Of a stretch of DNA of 37,397 nucleotides, positions 1 through 37,397 are shown in pieces (within the stretch, counting starts at the first letter, position 1; each line of letters begins with the position of its first letter). Location: the IMG/VR virus record IMGVR_UViG_2563366852_000004, positions 1-37,397 of that record, one strand, 5' to 3'. A model generated the notes under the pieces. That model saw only the letters and a program-made list of their open reading frames with translations. It had not been told where the DNA came from and searched no databases. This stretch comes from a virus. Its lineage: Duplodnaviria; Heunggongvirae; Uroviricota; Caudoviricetes. The translations under genes and the position numbers were made by a program.

Positions 1-1110
1 TTAAAGACTTCTTCTTGTGCTTAATTTCAAGTTCATCTTTGCCCATGCATTTCTTATTATTTTATTTGCCGGCATCTCAATTAATTTAAATGATATAATA
101 GAGAAAAATATAGAAATACCCAGACAGCAAACTATATAAAATATAACATCACGTACATCATTTTTGTTTGGTTGCATTATTTCCATTAGCTTAGAAATTA
201 TGATCCAGTGGAACATGTAAAATGAGAAGGATGCCTCTCCTAATAGAATTAGATATCTGTTAGATAAAAATTTAGAAATCACCCCGCCATCAAATGCAAA
301 CGCTATTACTATCATAGCCATACATGGGATATAAAGAAGATCATATTTTATATTCATGTACGAAACATAATTTGTTGCTACATATACGGTAAACGCCAAA
401 AAAAACAGAGAGCCAATCTCCATGGCACTACATATCGCAGGTTTTATATTTACTTTTTTAGCAAGAAACACTCTACTGATTAATACACCAATAATAAAAT
501 CGCCAATCCTGAAAAATGGATTTATATAAAACAGCCAGTGTGATGAAATATTAACTGGTGGGTTCAATAAAAAAAATAAATTAACAATAACAATTACCAA
601 AAGAGTACTTGTTAGATATCGTGACTTAAACTTTACAAGAAGACAAAAAGATAAATAAAAAAACATCTCACACGAGATACTCCATGATACGGGGTTAAAA
701 GAAAAATAGTAATCTGAGATAGGGATAAATGATTGAACCAATAGCGCATTATATATTAATGACTCTTTATTTATAGCCTCAAAGTTTTTTGTATAGCCAA
801 ATATAAAAAGGACACATATCAATGATATAATATGAACAGGAAATAATCTCGCGAGTCTGTAAACTATGAAGTCCTTGTTGCTAAATTTACCTTCTTCCAT
901 ATGCTTACTAAAGCTGTAATTAATAATAAATCCGGAAAGAATATAGAAGAAAGTAACCCCTATATAACCATTAAAAAAGTATTTTGCCGCAACATTGAAC
1001 TGCGAGATCGAAGACTGAGACAAAATGCCTAGATGGCTAACAAATACACCAAGAGCCGCAAGCATTCGAAGTGATGTAAGGCTATGAATAATTTTGTTTT
1101 TCTGAGTCAT
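1..1110 (-). CDS. Acyltransferase family 3 integral membrane protein (O-antigen acetylase-like, probable lysogenic conversion gene)
   Basis: 369 aa ORF, ATG at 1108-1110, stop at 1-3. Multi-pass hydrophobic protein whose N-terminus (SLRMLAALGVFVSHLG) is typical of Acyl_transf_3 O-acetyltransferases. Visibly AT-rich; sits next to the tailspike at the prophage end, as oac does in Sf6-type phages. Confidence 0.75.
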   Translation of the reverse strand: MTQKNKIIHSLTSLRMLAALGVFVSHLGILSQSSISQFNVAAKYFFNGYIGVTFFYILSGFIINYSFSKHMEEGKFSNKDFIVYRLARLFPVHIISLICVLFIFGYTKNFEAINKESLIYNALLVQSFIPISDYYFSFNPVSWSISCEMFFYLSFCLLVKFKSRYLTSTLLVIVIVNLFFLLNPPVNISSHWLFYINPFFRIGDFIIGVLISRVFLAKKVNIKPAICSAMEIGSLFFLAFTVYVATNYVSYMNIKYDLLYIPCMAMIVIAFAFDGGVISKFLSNRYLILLGEASFSFYMFHWIIISKLMEIMQPNKNDVRDVIFYIVCCLGISIFFSIISFKLIEMPANKIIRNAWAKMNLKLSTRRSL

Positions 1111-15186: not shown

Positions 15187-16602
15187 TCAACCTACACCAC
15201 AAGGAATTGAGTAACTGGAATAGTCGGGTTGCGCAGCCGACTCCGGGCAATGCATACACATCATCAGCGCATCAGCCAGGTTAGGAGATGGAATACCGAG
15301 CTTCTGCTTCATTTCGACCTTAGTCATAAGCTCCAGCTTCCCGTTGTTATTGAATTTGCGCTGAATCTGCGTCAGTTCTGCAAACAGCTTCTCCAGCATC
15401 TTCTCGCCTATCGCTTCTTTGTCGAAACTCAGCATGTCGTCGGGGTCTGCATACTCACCGTGGACAACCGCCCGATATGTCAGATACAGCCTGTCAGCCA
15501 GCGCGTAATAGAATTGCGCTCGCTTATTACGGAACACATCGCCAATAGTGCGAACGTTGTCGCCCTGCACGACTTCATCAGCCCATGCTCCGGCCTGATA
15601 TGGTGCATCTTCATCGAATGGCGATTCGCTGCCCTTGAACATCGTGGCGGTGATTTTCTTGCCGGAGAACGCTTCCGTTGTCTGTCTGCGTAGCCCGGCA
15701 CCAACACCATCACCATCCCACAGGTAATGGTCAGCGCCGTCTTCAATCGCCAGCGAAGTAGCCCAGTCAGCACCCTCGTTGATGTCCATCAGCAGACCTT
15801 CGGCAATGCGCTTAACTACCGAACCGTGACGCGATGCATAACCTTTAGCATCTGGTCCTGTATCTGACGGGTCATGCGCAGAGACAACAGCGCCTTTCGC
15901 TTTCCATCCGAGTTTCTTGTGCGCATCGGTAGCAGCTTCAAGCCATTCACGTTTGATGATTGCCATATCACTTGCGCTCACTGGCTCACCAAGCCAGATG
16001 TGACGATACAGTGTCGGGTTTCTGCGTTTACACTCTTCCATCTCCAGACGGAGAACTTCAGGAAAGTGCGGGTTGTCGGTGTAGTTCACCGTCAGCAGGC
16101 AAATATCATCGGGAGGATTTACAACGAATCGCTGATAGGTATCGTCGAGTATGTTCTTCGGGTTAAAGCTCACCCATATTTCAGAGAACGGCTTGCGGAT
16201 GGTTGGTATCAGGATATCCCATGATTCCTTCGTTACCGCTTCCGCTTCCTCCACCCAGCAGATATCAATGCCTTCGAGCGATTTAATCTTCGTCGGGTTG
16301 TTTTTGATGCCGTAGAACATGAACTCAGCATTCGTTCCGAGATGACGAATCATGGAACGCTGAATTTCAAACTCAGCCGTATACCCTTCACGCTCTATGG
16401 TGTCTTCAAGCAGCCGGATTACCGAATCGCTGATACTGTTTTGCAGTTCACGAGCGCAGAGAATACGCACTGGCTGCCGACGCGCCGCTTCAACAAGCAG
16501 CCTCGCAATTGCCCATGACTTACCGCTACCTCGACCGCCTTTGGCGACTTTGTAGCGATGCGCCTCAATGAACGGTTCAAAGATAGGATTAATCGAGGTC
16601 AT
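15187..16602 (-). CDS. Terminase large subunit
   Basis: 471 aa; Walker A-like KVAKGGRGSGKSWA near the N-terminus; directly upstream of the portal gene; 4-nt overlap with TerS. Confidence 0.9.
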   Translation of the reverse strand: MTSINPIFEPFIEAHRYKVAKGGRGSGKSWAIARLLVEAARRQPVRILCARELQNSISDSVIRLLEDTIEREGYTAEFEIQRSMIRHLGTNAEFMFYGIKNNPTKIKSLEGIDICWVEEAEAVTKESWDILIPTIRKPFSEIWVSFNPKNILDDTYQRFVVNPPDDICLLTVNYTDNPHFPEVLRLEMEECKRRNPTLYRHIWLGEPVSASDMAIIKREWLEAATDAHKKLGWKAKGAVVSAHDPSDTGPDAKGYASRHGSVVKRIAEGLLMDINEGADWATSLAIEDGADHYLWDGDGVGAGLRRQTTEAFSGKKITATMFKGSESPFDEDAPYQAGAWADEVVQGDNVRTIGDVFRNKRAQFYYALADRLYLTYRAVVHGEYADPDDMLSFDKEAIGEKMLEKLFAELTQIQRKFNNNGKLELMTKVEMKQKLGIPSPNLADALMMCMHCPESAAQPDYSSYSIPCGVG

Positions 16603-17021
16603 TTTCCGAATAGAGTGCTCATCGGTGATGTTTCAATCTGGATTGCGCCGCCGTCTTTGCCGACAAGCTCGTTAGTTACCTTGTCGCCATACTTACGGGG
16701 ATTCATTCGGGCCAGCGCCCATTTGCGGGTATCAACGCGAAGTCTTGCCTTTGCCACCTCAGCAGCATCTGGAATCGCAGTGTCAGCAATTTCGAATATC
16801 TCTTCGAAAATAGAATCAGCTCGTGCCTCAGTTGCCTTCGCGTACTTGTCGCGAAAATCCTCATGCTTTGCCAACCAGCGGAAAACAGTGGACTTATCCG
16901 GCATGCCAGGACGCTTACATACTTTCAGCAAACTTTCGCCAGAAGAAAGCAACGAGCAGATATCGTCAGCCACCTCCGGCATATAATCAGAGGGGCGACC
17001 AGCTTTTGGTTCAGTCGCCAT
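16599..17021 (-). CDS. Terminase small subunit
   Basis: 140 aa ORF immediately upstream of and overlapping TerL; resembles Sf6-type TerS from memory. Confidence 0.8.
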   Translation of the reverse strand: MATEPKAGRPSDYMPEVADDICSLLSSGESLLKVCKRPGMPDKSTVFRWLAKHEDFRDKYAKATEARADSIFEEIFEIADTAIPDAAEVAKARLRVDTRKWALARMNPRKYGDKVTNELVGKDGGAIQIETSPMSTLFGK

Positions 17022-17044: not shown

Positions 17045-17224
17045 TCAGGTTGAGGACTCTTTCGCGCCTTCAATCAGTGACTGCTTCAGCAATTCGAGTG
17101 TGCCAATCGCCTCGCATAAACTGATTTCACCATCGTAATCATGGATGACGCTTTCCAGCCGCTTGTATAGCTCTTGAGTAATTGGGAATTTCTTCTCCTT
17201 ACCCAAATTGATTACGCGGCTCAC
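17045..17224 (-). CDS. Small hypothetical protein (GTG start, below ORF-track cutoff)
   Basis: Manual translation of the minus strand: GTG at 17222-17224 (GGAG about 6 nt upstream), about 59 aa (SRVINLGKEKKFPITQELYKRLESVIHDYDGEISLCEAIGTLELLKQSLIEGAKESST), stop at 17045-17047; start lies 2 nt after the upstream gene's stop. Confidence 0.3.
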   Translation of the reverse strand: MSRVINLGKEKKFPITQELYKRLESVIHDYDGEISLCEAIGTLELLKQSLIEGAKESST

Positions 17225-17225
17225 A

Positions 17226-17468
17226 TCATGCTCCGGTAGTGAACAGGTCTAACGCTTCCTTCGATTTACGCACCGCTTCGATAGTGCGAGATGTGAAGTC
17301 TGGATTTGCACCGCCATCGTTGTAGTGCAACTTGAACAATTCCAGTTTCAGTTGGTCAGCACCAATGAATGCAAAAGCTTCCTCTGCCGCTGAATTGTTC
17401 TTAGATAGCAGTCGGTAAATTTCTAACTTGAATTTCTGTTCTTCAGTCATGGGAATAATCTCTGCCAT
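17226..17468 (-). CDS. Hypothetical protein
   Basis: 80 aa ORF, same orientation as the late operon; no recognisable motif. Confidence 0.45.
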   Translation of the reverse strand: MAEIIPMTEEQKFKLEIYRLLSKNNSAAEEAFAFIGADQLKLELFKLHYNDGGANPDFTSRTIEAVRKSKEALDLFTTGA

Positions 17469-17571
17469 TGTTGGCTCCGTTTATCCGTTAAAAGGGATAT
17501 CAGTTAAGTTATCCCGTGTAGGGTATAAGCCATTATCAAAGCCACTCTGTAGGGAATGGCTTTTGTAATAA

Positions 17572-17928
17572 CTACTGTTCGCTTAGCTTCTGCTTCAGCA
17601 AGTAACCTTCAAGCATCCAGATTTTGTTTACAGCATTCTGCCGGGCAATCTTCCGACCAATTTCTGCATCAAAGTTTTCCGGGCTTGCACAGGCGCTCTC
17701 TCCGGTGACGGTGAAGCCATTCTTCAGCACCAGTACGCAGAAAGTAAGGAGGTCTGTAGATTTATGCGCTGTCCACGCATCGCCAACGCCCATATTGGCG
17801 GCACGAATACCGTCATAAGCAGTAAAGAAATGCTCTTCAAGAATGATGCTTTCGATATATTGGGGCGTAACGCGCGGTGCCGTTTTGCCTTTCTCAACGA
17901 TTTCTTTTTCGATTTGCTGGTCGTTCAT
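17572..17928 (-). CDS. Conserved phage protein of unknown function
   Basis: 118 aa ORF (MNDQQIEKEIVEKGKTAPRVTPQYIESIILEEHFFTAYDG...); no motif I can assign with confidence. Confidence 0.55.
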   Translation of the reverse strand: MNDQQIEKEIVEKGKTAPRVTPQYIESIILEEHFFTAYDGIRAANMGVGDAWTAHKSTDLLTFCVLVLKNGFTVTGESACASPENFDAEIGRKIARQNAVNKIWMLEGYLLKQKLSEQ

Positions 17929-18106
17929 AATTATGACCCTGTAGAGTGGTTGCTTGATTAGGATGTCTTTCCATCAGTCCGCCACCACAAAGAATCTTTT
18001 TTGCCATAAGGCTGGAGGTTCATCTTTCAGTGGCTGCCAGTGTTATTCCCCCACTTACTGGCTTGGGTTGTTTCGCTGTACTGCCGTTAATTGGTGAGTC
18101 CGGGGA

Positions 18107-18592
18107 TTATTTCAGTTCGTTACCAGGCATTTCTTTTAGCTCTTTCAAATGACAACGATTGAGACTAAACCACTCCCCGTGCGACCTATAGTTGTAATAT
18201 TTTTGGTGCAATTTGGTTTCAAGCTCTCTATCGGCCGGAATCTTTGCAATTAGATTTAGCTTCCCACCACTCATGCGAGATATCTCTGAAATTCGTTTAT
18301 TAACCCTGCGACTAAACCCTATTTTTGTTAGCCCACTATCTTCAGCATGCAGAACGTACACATATGATTTTTGCGAAGCACTGGGTGCGACTTTGTTGTA
18401 ATTAATCATGTCAAACATGAAGCCTTGCTTTAGCAAAGTTTCAAAAAAGATAGAATTAACACACCCATTCCTTCTCAGCTCTGCACTTAGCTTGTCAATT
18501 TCCTCTATGATGTCGCCAGATCCCTTTCCACTTATAAGAAAATCTTGGTACATGCGACCAATTCTTGAGGTAATTTCAACAAAGTTATTCAT
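18107..18592 (-). CDS. T5orf172 / GIY-YIG-like domain protein (moron)
   Basis: 161 aa; segment YVYVLHAEDSGLTKIGFSRRVNKRISEISRMSGGKLNLIAKIP...E..LH.KY...R.HGEWF fits the T5orf172 (GIY-YIG-like) pattern; AT-rich; preceded by about 340 bp without a convincing ORF. Confidence 0.55.
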   Translation of the reverse strand: MNNFVEITSRIGRMYQDFLISGKGSGDIIEEIDKLSAELRRNGCVNSIFFETLLKQGFMFDMINYNKVAPSASQKSYVYVLHAEDSGLTKIGFSRRVNKRISEISRMSGGKLNLIAKIPADRELETKLHQKYYNYRSHGEWFSLNRCHLKELKEMPGNELK

Positions 18593-18731
18593 AGCGTTTA
18601 CCTTTTAGAAAGATGAGCCTGTTCGCACAGAAAAGCCGTCCCCGAGATGGTCGCCACCATATACGGCAATTCTCAGGCTCAGCTTTCTGAAAGACTCGGG
18701 GTTTATATGCGCTGCGATGCGCGTTTACTGA

Positions 18732-18761
18732 GGACACAAAAAAGCCCCGCGAATGCGAGGC
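18732..18761 (-). terminator. Intrinsic terminator downstream of the lysis cassette
   Basis: Minus strand GCCTCGC-ATTC-GCGGGGC followed by TTTTTTGTGT (7-bp stem with one G-U pair). Confidence 0.5.
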
Positions 18762-18935
18762 TAAATCCTGGTGTTTGTGATGACTGGCTCTTATCTCAAC
18801 GCAGCCCCTTACCGCGCGCCAGATGCTCAATATCAAGCATCAGCAATGAGATGTTTAATCTGGATTCACTCCAGAAGTGATCACCACCCTGTCTACAGAG
18901 CCAGATGTGAAGGATGATGAGTAAAATTATCGCTA

Positions 18936-19403
18936 TCATCGAAGGCATTGCGTCCTGATGTATTCCTGAAGCGTTCTCAGTGCTGTTTGGTCGCGGATAA
19001 TTCCGTCCCGGATACCGAGAACGTTTCGTCCAGCAACTGGAGAGAGTTCGACGGTGGCATCATTGCCCATGCCGGAGGCGCTGGAGGTTTCGGCTGAGGA
19101 TGGCACAGGGCATTTTCCTTTGACGAACACCCGACCACCATTATCAAGCTTGCGCCGAAGAGCATCATTTTCAGCTTTCGCATCAGCTAACTCCTTCGTG
19201 TATTTAGCATCGAGTGCATCAGCAGAACGCTGGCGCTGCTGCATGTCAGTAATGGTGGCGGTCGCCTGCTTCAGCTCACTGACTTTTTTATCTCGCTGTT
19301 CTTTGTAGGCGATGGCGTTATCACGGTAATGATTAACAGCCCATGACAGGCAGACGATGATGCAGATAACCAGAGCGGAGATAATCGCGGTTACTCTGCT
19401 CAT
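18936..19403 (-). CDS. Rz: Spanin inner-membrane subunit Rz
   Basis: 155 aa; N-terminus [31 protein letters not shown] matches lambda Rz from memory; overlaps the endolysin stop. Confidence 0.85.
18977..19183 (-). CDS. Rz1: Spanin outer-membrane lipoprotein Rz1 (embedded in Rz, +1 frame)
   Basis: ORF wholly inside Rz in another frame; [19 protein letters not shown] carries a lipobox-like VVGC followed by a Pro-rich stretch, as in lambda Rz1. Exact start uncertain. Confidence 0.7.
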
Positions 19404-20615: not shown

Positions 20616-21239
20616 CTAACGTGTGACCGCATTCAAGATATTGTCTGCGATTGACTCTTCTTTGTGGCATTGCACCACCAGAGCGTCATACAGTGGCTTA
20701 ACAGTGCGTGACCAGGTGGGTTGAGTAAGGTTTGGGATTAGCATCGTTACAGCGCGATATGCAGCGCTTGCTGGCATTCTTGAATAGCCGACGCCTTTGC
20801 ATCTTCCGCACTCTTTCTCGACAACTCTCCCCCACTGCTCTGTTTTTGCTATATCAACCGCACGACCTGTACCGTGGCAATCTCTGCATCTTGCGCCCGG
20901 CGTCGCGGCACTACGGCAATAATCCGCATAAGCGAATGTTGCGAGCACTTGCAGCACCTTTGCCTTAGTATTTCCTTCGAGCTTTGCCACACCACGGTAT
21001 TTCCCCGATACCTTGTGTGCAAATTGCATCAGATAGTTGATAGCCTTTTGTTTGTCGTTCTGGCTGAGTTCGTGCTTACCACAGAATGCAGCCATTCCGA
21101 ATCCGGCTTGTGATTGCGCCATCCCCATAGCAGCCATCACATCAGTACCGGAAAGAGAGTCAGAAGCCGTGGCCCGTGCTGAGTCGCTCATCATTGGGCT
21201 TTTTGGCGAATGAAATTTAGCTACGCTTTCGAGTCTCAT
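20616..21239 (-). CDS. Q: Late antiterminator Q
   Basis: 207 aa, essentially identical to lambda Q from memory (MRLESVAKFHSPKSPMMSDS...). Confidence 0.9.
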   Translation of the reverse strand: MRLESVAKFHSPKSPMMSDSARATASDSLSGTDVMAAMGMAQSQAGFGMAAFCGKHELSQNDKQKAINYLMQFAHKVSGKYRGVAKLEGNTKAKVLQVLATFAYADYCRSAATPGARCRDCHGTGRAVDIAKTEQWGRVVEKECGRCKGVGYSRMPASAAYRAVTMLIPNLTQPTWSRTVKPLYDALVVQCHKEESIADNILNAVTR

Positions 21240-36127: not shown

Positions 36128-36346
36128 ATGTACTTGACACTTCAGGAGTGGAACGCACGCCAGCGACGCCCAAGAAGCCTTGAAACAGTTCGTCGATGGG
36201 TGCGCGAATGCAGGATATTCCCTCCTCCGGTTAAGGATGGAAGAGAGTATCTGTTCCACGAGTCAGCGGTAAAGGTTGACTTAAATCGACCAGTAACAGG
36301 TAGCCTTTTGAAGAGGATCAGAAATGGGAAGAAGGCGAAGTCATGA
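36128..36346 (+). CDS. xis: Excisionase Xis
   Basis: 72 aa; MYLTLQEWNARQRRPRSLETVRRWVRECRIFPPPVKDGREYLFHESAVKVDLNRP... is essentially identical to lambda Xis as remembered. Confidence 0.9.
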   Translation: MYLTLQEWNARQRRPRSLETVRRWVRECRIFPPPVKDGREYLFHESAVKVDLNRPVTGSLLKRIRNGKKAKS

Positions 36347-37397
36347 GCGCCGGGATTTACCCCCTAACCTTTATATAAGAAACAATGGATATTACTGCTA
36401 CAGGGACCCAAGGACGGGTAAAGAGTTCGGATTAGGCCGAGACAGACGCATAGCAATCACTGAAGCTATACAGGCCAATATTGAGTTGCTATCCGGGAAC
36501 AGGCGTGAGTCACTGATAGACAGAATTAAAGGCGCTGACGCAATCACTCTTCATGCGTGGCTTGACCGATATGAAACAATCCTCAGCGAGAGGGGTATCA
36601 GGCCGAAAACTCTACTCGACTACGCCAGCAAAATCAGGGCAATCCGAAGAAAATTGCCGGACAAACCGCTCGCTGACATATCAACGAAAGAGGTGGCAGC
36701 AATGCTAAACACCTACGTAGCAGAAGGTAAAGCGGCTTCCGCAAAATTAATCAGGTCAACCCTTGTTGACGTTTTTCGTGAGGCAATAGCCGAGGGGCAT
36801 GTAGCAACGAATCCGGTAACAGCAACCCGCACAGCAAAGTCAGAAGTAAGGCGCTCAAGGCTGACAGCTAATGAGTATGTCGAGATTTACCATGCAGCCG
36901 AACCTCTCCCAATCTGGCTAAGACTGGCGATGGATTTGGCTGTCGTTACAGGGCAGAGAGTCGGCGATTTGTGCAGAATGAAATGGTCAGACATAAACGA
37001 CAACTATCTTCACATTGAACAGGGTAAAACAGGGGCTAAGCTCGCCATTCCGCTGACGCTAAGGATTGACGCGCTCAATATCTCATTGGCTGATACACTA
37101 CAGAAATGCAGGAAGGCCAGCGGCAGTGAAACAATAATTGCATCAACGCATCACGAACCACTTTCCCCGAAAACAGTATCGAAGTATTTTACAAAGGCGA
37201 GAAATGCATCTGGGCTCTCATTTGATGGAGACCCGCCAACATTCCATGAACTGCGTAGCCTGTCGGCGAGGCTATACCGGAACCAGATTGGCGATAAGTT
37301 TGCTCAACGTCTTCTCGGGCATAAATCAGATTCAATGGCAGCGCGGTATAGGGACAGCCGTGGACGGGAATGGGACAAAATTGAAATCGACAAATGA
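36324..37397 (+). CDS. int: Tyrosine integrase (lambda Int family)
   Basis: 357 aa; N-terminus MGRRRSHERRDLPPNLYIRNNGYYCYRDPRTGKEFGLGRDRRIAITEAIQANIEL and catalytic region (HELRSL...LLGHKSD..A..YRD.RGREWDKIEI) match lambda Int; overlaps xis by 23 nt as in lambda; stop coincides with the window end. Confidence 0.95.
   Translation: MGRRRSHERRDLPPNLYIRNNGYYCYRDPRTGKEFGLGRDRRIAITEAIQANIELLSGNRRESLIDRIKGADAITLHAWLDRYETILSERGIRPKTLLDYASKIRAIRRKLPDKPLADISTKEVAAMLNTYVAEGKAASAKLIRSTLVDVFREAIAEGHVATNPVTATRTAKSEVRRSRLTANEYVEIYHAAEPLPIWLRLAMDLAVVTGQRVGDLCRMKWSDINDNYLHIEQGKTGAKLAIPLTLRIDALNISLADTLQKCRKASGSETIIASTHHEPLSPKTVSKYFTKARNASGLSFDGDPPTFHELRSLSARLYRNQIGDKFAQRLLGHKSDSMAARYRDSRGREWDKIEIDK

Follow-up and report, generated by a model that had tools for sequence, protein, structure and literature searches.

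The stretch of DNA analysed here (the window, 37,397 nucleotides, IMG/VR record IMGVR_UViG_2563366852_000004) is a nearly complete P22-like (Lederbergvirus) prophage, in which the late genes lie on the minus strand. Between the last lysis gene, Rz, and the small terminase gene, terS, there is a block (17045–18935) that comparison with relatives marks as an accessory-gene zone of the late operon, composed of three independently exchanged modules. The first module carries a leader upstream of a 161-amino-acid (161-aa) open reading frame (ORF) of the T5orf172 type, and the comparative evidence shows this leader to be a sense-strand RNA element with two mutually exclusive conserved folds, of which the so-called X:X′ fold leaves the Shine–Dalgarno (SD) sequence in weak local structure. 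On balance, it is considered probable that the block combines three exchangeable modules with a two-fold leader, that the ORF behind the leader is read only by late read-through, and that its translation is gated by the leader. The leader is apparently a conserved RNA structure of an undescribed kind, the structure itself being well supported; that is to say, it is the RNA element that looks new, not the gene content. The parts of the leader and the ORF behind it are as follows.

18733–18762, minus strand: intrinsic terminator (8-bp stem with six G-C pairs, tetraloop, T tract)
18709–18722, minus strand: P0 hairpin, GCGC-N6-GCGC
18695–18701, minus strand: X (CCCCGAG), 5′ strand of the alternative helix, just 5′ of the long hairpin
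18601–18694, minus strand: long imperfect hairpin of about 95 nt; at its base, CUUUC pairs with the SD AAAGG
18640–18646, minus strand: X′ (CUCGGGG), in the internal loop on the 3′ side of the long hairpin
18601–18605, minus strand: SD AAAGG, 8 nt upstream of the ATG (18592–18590)
18107–18592, minus strand: 161-aa ORF

The order of the leader is thus terminator, GCGC hairpin P0 and the hairpin of about 95 nt over the SD. An earlier note on this DNA had reported an intrinsic terminator and several inverted repeats in this region: the terminator lies on the minus strand with its stem at 18762–18743 and its T tract reaching to 18733, and the inverted repeats are real and conserved. The terminator is annotated at the homologous site in epsilon34, HK106 and phi80, its stem shows compensatory changes in alignment A2, and it stands directly upstream of the leader in every lineage. 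As for P0, the stem sequence is invariant in 44 phage and IMG/VR leaders (a few compensatory changes occur in the genome set) and the loop (N6–8) varies freely, which suggests a sequence-specific contact, at the protein or the DNA level, rather than mere pairing. P0 and the terminator persist in phages that have no long hairpin, such as HK022, mEpX1/2, HK446 and phiEt88.

The long hairpin is the minimum free energy (MFE) fold in 14 of 14 loci when each leader is folded alone (z = −2.68), the SD is paired in both the MFE and the centroid folds, and the ATG 3′ of the leader is conserved across leaders. The covariance model (CM) R1 has exactly one match in the window (18589–18722, 155 bits, E = 2e-42) and 46 further matches among phage and IMG/VR loci that had been collected by way of Rha homologues. 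Since the MAFFT alignment A4 of diverse leaders was out of structural register for RNAalifold, CM-based alignment was used, that is, A7 for the phage and IMG/VR leaders, and A9 served as an independent genome set. In A7, 95.9% of the cells are paired, as against 84% after shuffling and 35–44% with slid partners; both sides have changed in 24 of the 37 hairpin pairs, and the observed values were reached in none of 500 shuffles. In A9, 96.4% are paired as against 39–47% with slid partners, and 10 pairs have changed on both sides. G-U pairs exceed A-C mismatches by 116:23 and 38:9 in these CM-fitted alignments, which argues for a sense-strand RNA. No Rfam 15 family was found for the hairpin, whether with 5 kb (E up to 1) or with 241 nt (E up to 10), the only matches being sub-threshold and terminator-like (at most 17.5 bits). 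No description of the leader was found in the searchable literature, the 1995 rha paper and the phi80 genome paper lying outside that search. Two other identities were tried and rejected: a small ORF inside the leader is excluded by 1-nt indels within and between leader types, the N-terminal extension of P0010 (the 183-aa form of a T5orf172 homologue) being a mis-called start; and the prophage small RNAs AsxR and AgvB of enterohaemorrhagic E. coli map elsewhere, 3′ of pR′.

The alternative helix was analysed with explicit motifs. X and X′ form 6–7 perfect Watson–Crick pairs in 27 of 27 distinct combinations, in at least nine sequence versions (X is found as CCCCGAG, CGAGAG, CCACCGA, CACCGAA, CGUCGA, CACAGA(A), CCCAGAG, GAAAGU, ACCCGAG and CCAAGAG); at least six pairs were reached in 5.4% of trials with shuffled partners and in 9.8% with cross-class partners. 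X lies 1–8 nt from the base of the helix of about 28 bp and X′ near the top of the same helix; therefore, X:X′ and the long hairpin cannot coexist. When the transcript is made to end at X′, X:X′ is predicted to be fully formed and to close a three-way junction in six of six leader types, and at full length the MFE fold of the six types is the long hairpin, more stable by 7–26 kcal/mol. By inspection, stem strand 'b' (GCCG or, in P22, CCAG) finds a complementary partner in each of the two folds, and where the strand changes, so do the two partners.

The distribution of the leader does not follow any one gene. The segment 18593–18770 matches 200 phage records whatever gene follows, including phi80 (upstream of rha), 74 Stx2a phages, HK106 and phages of Hafnia, Enterobacter, Klebsiella and Citrobacter, the P22 leader being the most diverged form. 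One genome per species was scanned by pattern and then with the CM, which gave 22 matches in 21 Enterobacterales species, among the genera of which are Citrobacter, Buttiauxella, Pluralibacter, Pantoea, Rahnella, Rouxiella, Yersinia, Xenorhabdus and Symbiopectobacterium. The ORFs found 3′ of the leader are Phage_pRha, Rha+ANT, KilA-N, Bro-N, P22_AR_N+ORF11CD3 and T5orf172, and further HNH_3+AP2, HNH_3+zf-His_Me_endon and an N15 gp59-like ORF. The leader had been taken as belonging to the T5orf172 gene, and this idea has to be given up: it is common to Rha, KilA-N, Bro-N, P22_AR_N, HNH and T5orf172 genes. Two leaders in tandem leader–ORF units occur in phi80, Stx phage Lyz12581Vzw, Yersinia vastinensis and the loci L087 and L092, and the second copies (L010 3634–3748; L013 136–270; L087 2838–2937; L092 735–873 and 1558–1694; L148 4870–4998) each precede another accessory ORF, namely N15 gp59-like, P22_AR_N+ORF11CD3, KilA-N or HNH_3.

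Two side observations concern these loci. Annotated starts lie inside the leader, upstream of the conserved ATG, in P22 rha (ORF201, GTG; L007 2080–2149), phi80 rha (L010 2132–2167) and P0010; the true products are probably shorter by 23, 12 and 23 residues, respectively, and the leader suggests corrected start codons for P22 ORF201 (rha), phi80 rha and several metagenomic homologues. In addition, a contig labelled as a Cellvibrionaceae metagenome-assembled genome (L125 2506–2635) contains the leader and a protein identical to the 161-aa protein of the window, and is likely an enterobacterial prophage mis-binned into that genome.

Scanning with the sigma-70 consensus, also at relaxed thresholds, gave no promoter for the coding strand; nor was a terminator found downstream of the 161-aa gene, the single terminator lying upstream. 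A Q-type antiterminator is encoded upstream of the block (20616–21239). Since the coding strand has no predicted promoter and each lineage has a terminator immediately upstream, the Q-modified late polymerase should be the only one to reach the ORF. The proposed mechanism would then run as follows: the 161-aa gene, having no promoter of its own, would be transcribed only by Q-modified late RNA polymerase passing through the terminator; the nascent transcript would first form the X:X′ fold, which would be permissive for translation, with the SD in weak structure; and relaxation into the far more stable SD-sequestering hairpin would then stop translation. Alternatively, a ligand, a protein or RNase III may shift the balance between the folds. 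The outcome either way would be a small, late and brief dose of a potentially toxic DNA-binding or nuclease protein, and the leader would serve as a fixed 'socket' into which the ORFs of the Rha/KilA-N/Bro-N/P22_AR_N/T5orf172/HNH network are swapped at the start codon. For rha, the phi80 record carries the note 'DNA synthesis inhibition in IHF- hosts'; Henthorn and Friedman are said to have found in 1995 that its product is inhibitory in hosts deficient in integration host factor (IHF).

The leader thus described probably controls the translation of the downstream genes, and it could work as a kinetic 'delayed-folding' switch or as a riboswitch-like sensor of a host or phage signal. A wider proposal is put forward more tentatively, as a possibility: the leader may be a two-state riboregulator and represent a new family of RNAs, known to date only from lambdoid phages and prophages of Enterobacterales, and may gate whichever toxic DNA-binding, antirepressor or nuclease ORF occupies the socket. 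If this were true, the presence of the leader would identify late accessory genes that form a class under uniform regulation, not recognised before.

Several points weigh against gating by a two-fold leader. Late read-through, translational gating and toxicity are all matters that we infer, and the promoter scan covered the sigma-70 consensus only. The incompatibility of X:X′ with the long hairpin is a topological and steric argument. In the predicted folds the SD still lies in a weak local hairpin when X:X′ is enforced; therefore, 'permissive' is relative. The X:X′ covariation was scored with scripts of our own, MAFFT having lost the strand register on the X..X′ domains. Because the CM fitted A7 and A9 to the structure, both the percentage paired and the G-U excess are inflated; the slid controls and the MFE folds of the single sequences reduce this inflation without removing it. 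On the protein side, fold searches of the PDB matched only the helical bundle of the 161-aa protein and recovered no GIY-YIG structure for its C-domain.

The three modules follow from pairwise blastn of the block against epsilon34, HK620, Sf6, HK106, Sf101, Huey and P22, where the breakpoints are sharp. The modules and the genes concerned are listed below.

18097–18773 (677 bp): module A, terminator, structured leader of about 134 nt and exchangeable ORF; insertion relative to Sf6
17962–18106, minus strand: spacer of 145 bp after the cassette stop codon, 3′ junction of the cassette exchange
17573–17961, minus strand: module B, exact 389-bp indel with the 118-aa gene
17572–17928, minus strand: 118-aa ORF, PF13876
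17226–17468, minus strand: 80-aa ORF (orf80), DUF2560; with orf59 forms module C, which is followed by terS
17045–17224, minus strand: 59-aa ORF (orf59), ORF59c
16599–17021, minus strand: terS, small terminase of Sf6 type (Pfam Sf6_terminase, E = 1e-44)
18936–19403, minus strand: Rz i-spanin, last lysis gene (Pfam Phage_lysis, E = 8e-29)
18977–19183: Rz1, embedded in Rz

In the slot of module A, the 161-aa ORF is swapped exactly from ATG to stop in relatives, homology restarting at 18588 and at 18096–18109. The occupant is Rha in P22 and Sf101, KilA-N plus hkbL in HK620, a T5orf172 paralogue (32% identical) in HK106 and the GIY-YIG gene gp68 in epsilon34. In Huey the slot holds a Tad2-like gene and in Sf6 it is empty, with a 106-nt filler and neither terminator nor leader at the position of module A; because the leader is also missing in Huey and Sf6, the breakpoint there lies further upstream. 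The 389-bp indel of module B is present in Sf6 and Huey and missing from epsilon34, HK620, HK106, Sf101 and P22, where 17572 abuts 17962. Whichever cassette is present, the 145-bp spacer is 95–99% identical across almost all P22-like loci, as it is in many Stx2a phages, and it is more conserved than the neighbouring genes (82–89%); no function was found for 17962–18106, which may be simply the 3′ recombination joint. After the 118-aa gene, the intergenic stretch 17469–17571 (minus strand) is AT-rich (0.40) and contains a 7-bp stem-loop, AAAGCCA-N12-TGGCTTT, without a T tract, which is kept at the indel junction in HK106, HK620 and P22.

As to the block as a whole, the earlier note is largely right in what it observed and partly right in how it read this. 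The four small ORFs between Rz and terS and both flanking genes are where the earlier note had placed them, and its expectation that the block varies among relatives is borne out by the complete E. coli genomes, of which 2780 of 5426 contain parts of the block and 5 contain at least 80% of it. The AT-richness ascribed to the block holds for the 161-aa ORF, whose GC content is 0.387 (window mean 0.475, sd 0.045; 4.4% of windows of equal length are as low), and not for the other three ORFs (0.44–0.48) or the leader (0.507). The suggestion of one independently acquired cassette is right in so far as the T5orf172 ORF is exchangeable alone and compositionally deviant; the blastn breakpoints speak for three independent modules instead. 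Likewise, the placing of all four genes outside the core P22-type module fails for orf59 and orf80, which are P22 ORF59c and ORF80.

The 161-aa protein had been called T5orf172/GIY-YIG-like, and it matches both MUG113 (PF13455, 50.1 bits, E = 4e-13, cut-off 22.3) and T5orf172 (PF10544, 39.2 bits, E = 1e-9, cut-off 20) above the Pfam cut-offs. Its ORF (18107–18592, minus strand) encodes an hkbL-like three-helix N-domain (residues 2–68) and a T5orf172/MUG113 domain of GIY-YIG type (residues 72–154). The protein is 100% identical to epsilon34 gp68, the PGAP name of its cluster is 'GIY-YIG nuclease family protein', and homologues of about 60% identity occur in the matching slot, after Rz and before terS, of a different lambdoid lineage. 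In 30 homologues down to 25% identity, Y79, K90-I91-G92, R100, E125, H129 and E140-W141-F142 are invariant, and all family-invariant residues matching GIY-YIG-type motifs are present here. The AlphaFold (AF2) model, with a pLDDT score (predicted local distance difference test) of 95, has a three-helix bundle and an alpha/beta domain, the N-domain being, as modelled, a generic three-helix bundle. The N-terminal 68 residues are homologous to HK620 hkbL (E = 4e-10; phrog_875), the small gene 3′ of KilA-N in the HK620 cassette, and the HK620 KilA-N protein and Rha have a common C-terminal part (E = 1e-7); therefore, the alternative cassettes are related by domain shuffling.

A Pfam profile search found no Zn-finger or other DNA-binding domain in the 161-aa protein, an NCBIfam search gave no match, and a literature search found no published function for epsilon34 gp68. 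A relationship to pentatricopeptide repeat (PPR) proteins was rejected: the phmmer match in the PDB to designed PPR proteins (E = 3e-6) is the sum of eight individually insignificant repeats, that is, a repeat artefact. Residues 17–56 (window 18383–18592) do resemble the consensus PPR helix-turn-helix motif of those designed proteins, and this resemblance is probably only that of a helical hairpin. A candidate defence identity from PADLOC, with weak matches to PDC-S57 (E = 4e-4) and PDC-M64B (E = 0.034), was judged insufficient.

Four other explanations were weighed against the gated, exchangeable cassette. The 161-aa gene might be a free-standing T5orf172 homing endonuclease gene (HEG) that invaded an intergenic site, with the hairpin as its own control sequestering the ribosome-binding site (RBS) and the flanks as co-conversion tracts. 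It is present sporadically between conserved flanks in close relatives, its ORF is AT-rich, none of the conserved residues of GIY-YIG type is missing, the leader also precedes HNH_3+AP2 and HNH_3+zf-His_Me_endon genes, and the flanks are 95–98% conserved as against 82–89% for neighbouring genes. Moreover, published T5orf172 genes are putative HEGs whose most frequent neighbours are terminase genes (35% of neighbourhoods). Of the published T5orf172 HEGs, however, 87% carry Zn-finger DNA-binding domains, and the 161-aa protein has neither a Zn finger nor any separate sequence-specific DNA-binding domain in the profile search, its N-domain being a generic bundle; the leader and flanks are equally conserved in phages with Rha or KilA-N, and are therefore not HEG-specific; and no empty target, i.e., no site with the leader and without an ORF, was seen. 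This explanation is rather unlikely. It is unlikely, too, that the main role of the long hairpin is that of a processing site for RNase III, at which cleavage either switches translation on, as in the lambda N leader, or leads to decay, with X:X′ secondary. The long, near-perfect helices (22 consecutive pairs in the lower stem of the Stx variant) and the conserved internal-loop sequences agree with such a site; the strong X:X′ covariation would be left unexplained by it, and processing of this kind is compatible with the gated leader rather than exclusive of it.

A classic moron, that is, an autonomous lysogenic-conversion or defence cassette expressed from the prophage by its own promoter in the 340-bp leader, is very unlikely. 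The 677-bp unit, absent from Sf6, is indeed extra and compositionally deviant DNA (ORF GC 0.387) between genes adjacent in relatives, and the weak PADLOC matches would suit such a cassette. The classic moron picture fails because the coding strand has no predicted sigma-70 promoter, relaxed thresholds included, and because the terminator lies upstream and none follows the gene, so that the claim of the earlier note that the block has its own regulation is not sustained in this form; in addition, the leader is common to non-homologous genes and buries the SD. Scarcely probable at all is the reading in which the hairpin acts as DNA, as a folded single-strand recombination site (attC-like) or a 'boundary sequence' for cassette exchange, and not as regulatory RNA. 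The exact swapping of ORFs at the leader/ATG junction, the structural conservation of a long imperfect hairpin and the second copies in several loci would fit it. Against it, the G-U over A-C asymmetry of 116:23 favours a sense-strand RNA, the stem base coincides with the SD and the element stops 8 nt short of the ATG, an attC-type site has no use for the X:X′ fold, and no dedicated recombinase travels along, homologous recombination in the conserved flanks being sufficient for exchange.

Module B carries the gene whose identity the earlier note overlooked. The 118-aa protein matches PF13876 over the full-length profile (positions 1–82, 118.6 bits, E = 1.7e-34) and is by this match a member of the Acb4 family and a predicted sponge of cyclic dinucleotides directed against the cyclic-oligonucleotide-based anti-phage signalling system (anti-CBASS). 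In a 2024 preprint, PF13876 is defined as the Acb4 family of anti-CBASS cyclic-dinucleotide sponges, and 3′3′-cGAMP is bound by all eight Acb4 homologues tested (bioRxiv 10.1101/2024.12.30.630793). Against the Acb4 structure of Bacillus phage SPO1 (PDB 9E4W), phmmer gives E = 0.006 through the common segment ENFxxEIGR, in which the ligand-contact positions F62 and I66 are kept; unlike in SPO1 Acb4, residues V56, Y57, N63 and T70 are replaced by C, A, D and I at the aligned positions. In Huey, the slot gene (L006 997–1497) is a Tad2-like homologue of Thoeris anti-defence proteins (PF11195, E = 1.7e-24) and is followed by an Acb4-family gene, both labelled 'anti-CRISPR' in the record; therefore, the lysis–terminase junction looks like a counter-defence locus. 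In module C, orf80 (Pfam DUF2560, E = 5.5e-37; P22 ORF80, HK620 hkbM, Sf6 gp67) and orf59 (phrog_3546, E = 2e-42; P22 ORF59c, HK620 hkbN, Sf6 gp68) are conserved backbone genes, as their homologues indicate.

In the region of about 340 bp that the earlier note had described as having no convincing ORF, a 50-aa ORF is present, as follows.

18796–18948, minus strand: 50-aa ORF with a hydrophobic N-terminus, overlapping the end of Rz (phrog_11822, E = 4e-38)

It is annotated in Sf6 (gene 65), epsilon34 (gp67) and Sf101. In 21 DNA variants, the variable sites by codon position are 8/6/10, without third-position excess, and one of the 21 has an in-frame stop; its coding status is doubtful on this pattern, and since no coding signature is present, the earlier description was fair. 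Elsewhere in the window, the late region also encodes a holin, a lysozyme, Rz/Rz1, the Sf6-type terS and terL, the integrase lies at 36324–37397, and a tailspike with a P22 head-binding domain and an AT-rich acyltransferase lie toward the left end. The latter, an Acyl_transf_3 gene at 1–1110 (minus strand) adjoining the tailspike at the prophage end, is strongly AT-rich, with GC falling to 0.28, and stands out in composition far more clearly than the block 17045–18935; it is probably an O-antigen acetyltransferase for lysogenic conversion.

The gene content of the block is ordinary: the site is a known mosaic hotspot, the protein has been in GenBank since epsilon34, and the sponge is of Acb4 type. 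The genome papers of epsilon34, HK620 and Sf6, together with PGAP names, had made the gene block known before, and the Acb4 assignment follows the 2024 preprint. The leader is of wider use: in lambdoid phages, the enigmatic 'domain-shuffling' genes (Rha, KilA-N, Bro, T5orf172) have in it one conserved element in common, by which they are probably controlled after transcription, so that the regulation of these genes is now directly testable, and the CM of the leader can be used for locating accessory, anti-defence and nuclease cassettes in prophages. The putative anti-CBASS sponge beside the slot and the Tad2-like anti-Thoeris gene in the slot of a relative point to the lysis–terminase junction as a counter-defence locus.

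The closest known counterpart is gp68 of Salmonella phage epsilon34 (gp64 of g341c), annotated as a GIY-YIG nuclease family protein, in which the protein is 100% identical and its gene lies in the matching slot after Rz, preceded by the same terminator and leader; unlike the window, epsilon34 has no Acb4-family gene (only a remnant annotated as the N-terminus of orf118) and has different genes before its terS. In Vibrio phage ICP1 and its satellite PLE, the T5orf172 nucleases, i.e., putative HEGs, Odn and CapR (PMC10448857, PMC8263062), are similar in having a T5orf172 domain with the conserved Y/R/E set, near terminase and at a recombination boundary; the 161-aa protein differs from them in lacking a CapR, DUF723 or DUF4397 Zn-finger DNA-binding domain, in its hkbL-like three-helix N-domain and in its much smaller size (161 aa). 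The rha gene of phi80 and P22 sits in the same slot of the genome, behind the same structured leader, and its product, with a Phage_pRha domain, is unrelated to the 161-aa protein. To our knowledge, the rha leader has not been described as an RNA structure.

As for the regulatory side, RBS-sequestering hairpins restrict the translation of free-standing HEGs in T4-like phages (I-TevI, mobE), and 'delayed RNA folding' controls the maturation gene of MS2. The present leader resembles these in that a stable helix upstream of a nuclease gene takes up the SD, and translation could have a short window while a transient fold of the nascent RNA lasts; unlike them, one leader family is common here to at least eight unrelated ORF types across a bacterial order, with a covarying alternative helix and no internal late promoter found. 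Translational riboswitches with a three-way-junction aptamer, such as the add adenine riboswitch, offer another comparison: X:X′ is like a P1 closing helix around two hairpins and is mutually exclusive with the SD-sequestering helix; unlike in the add type, no ligand is known or predicted for the leader, no Rfam family matches it, and the P1 strands are not re-used in the OFF fold. What sets the leader apart from the T4-type HEG hairpins, the MS2 maturation gene and the riboswitches alike is that it provides one conserved socket for many unrelated ORFs.

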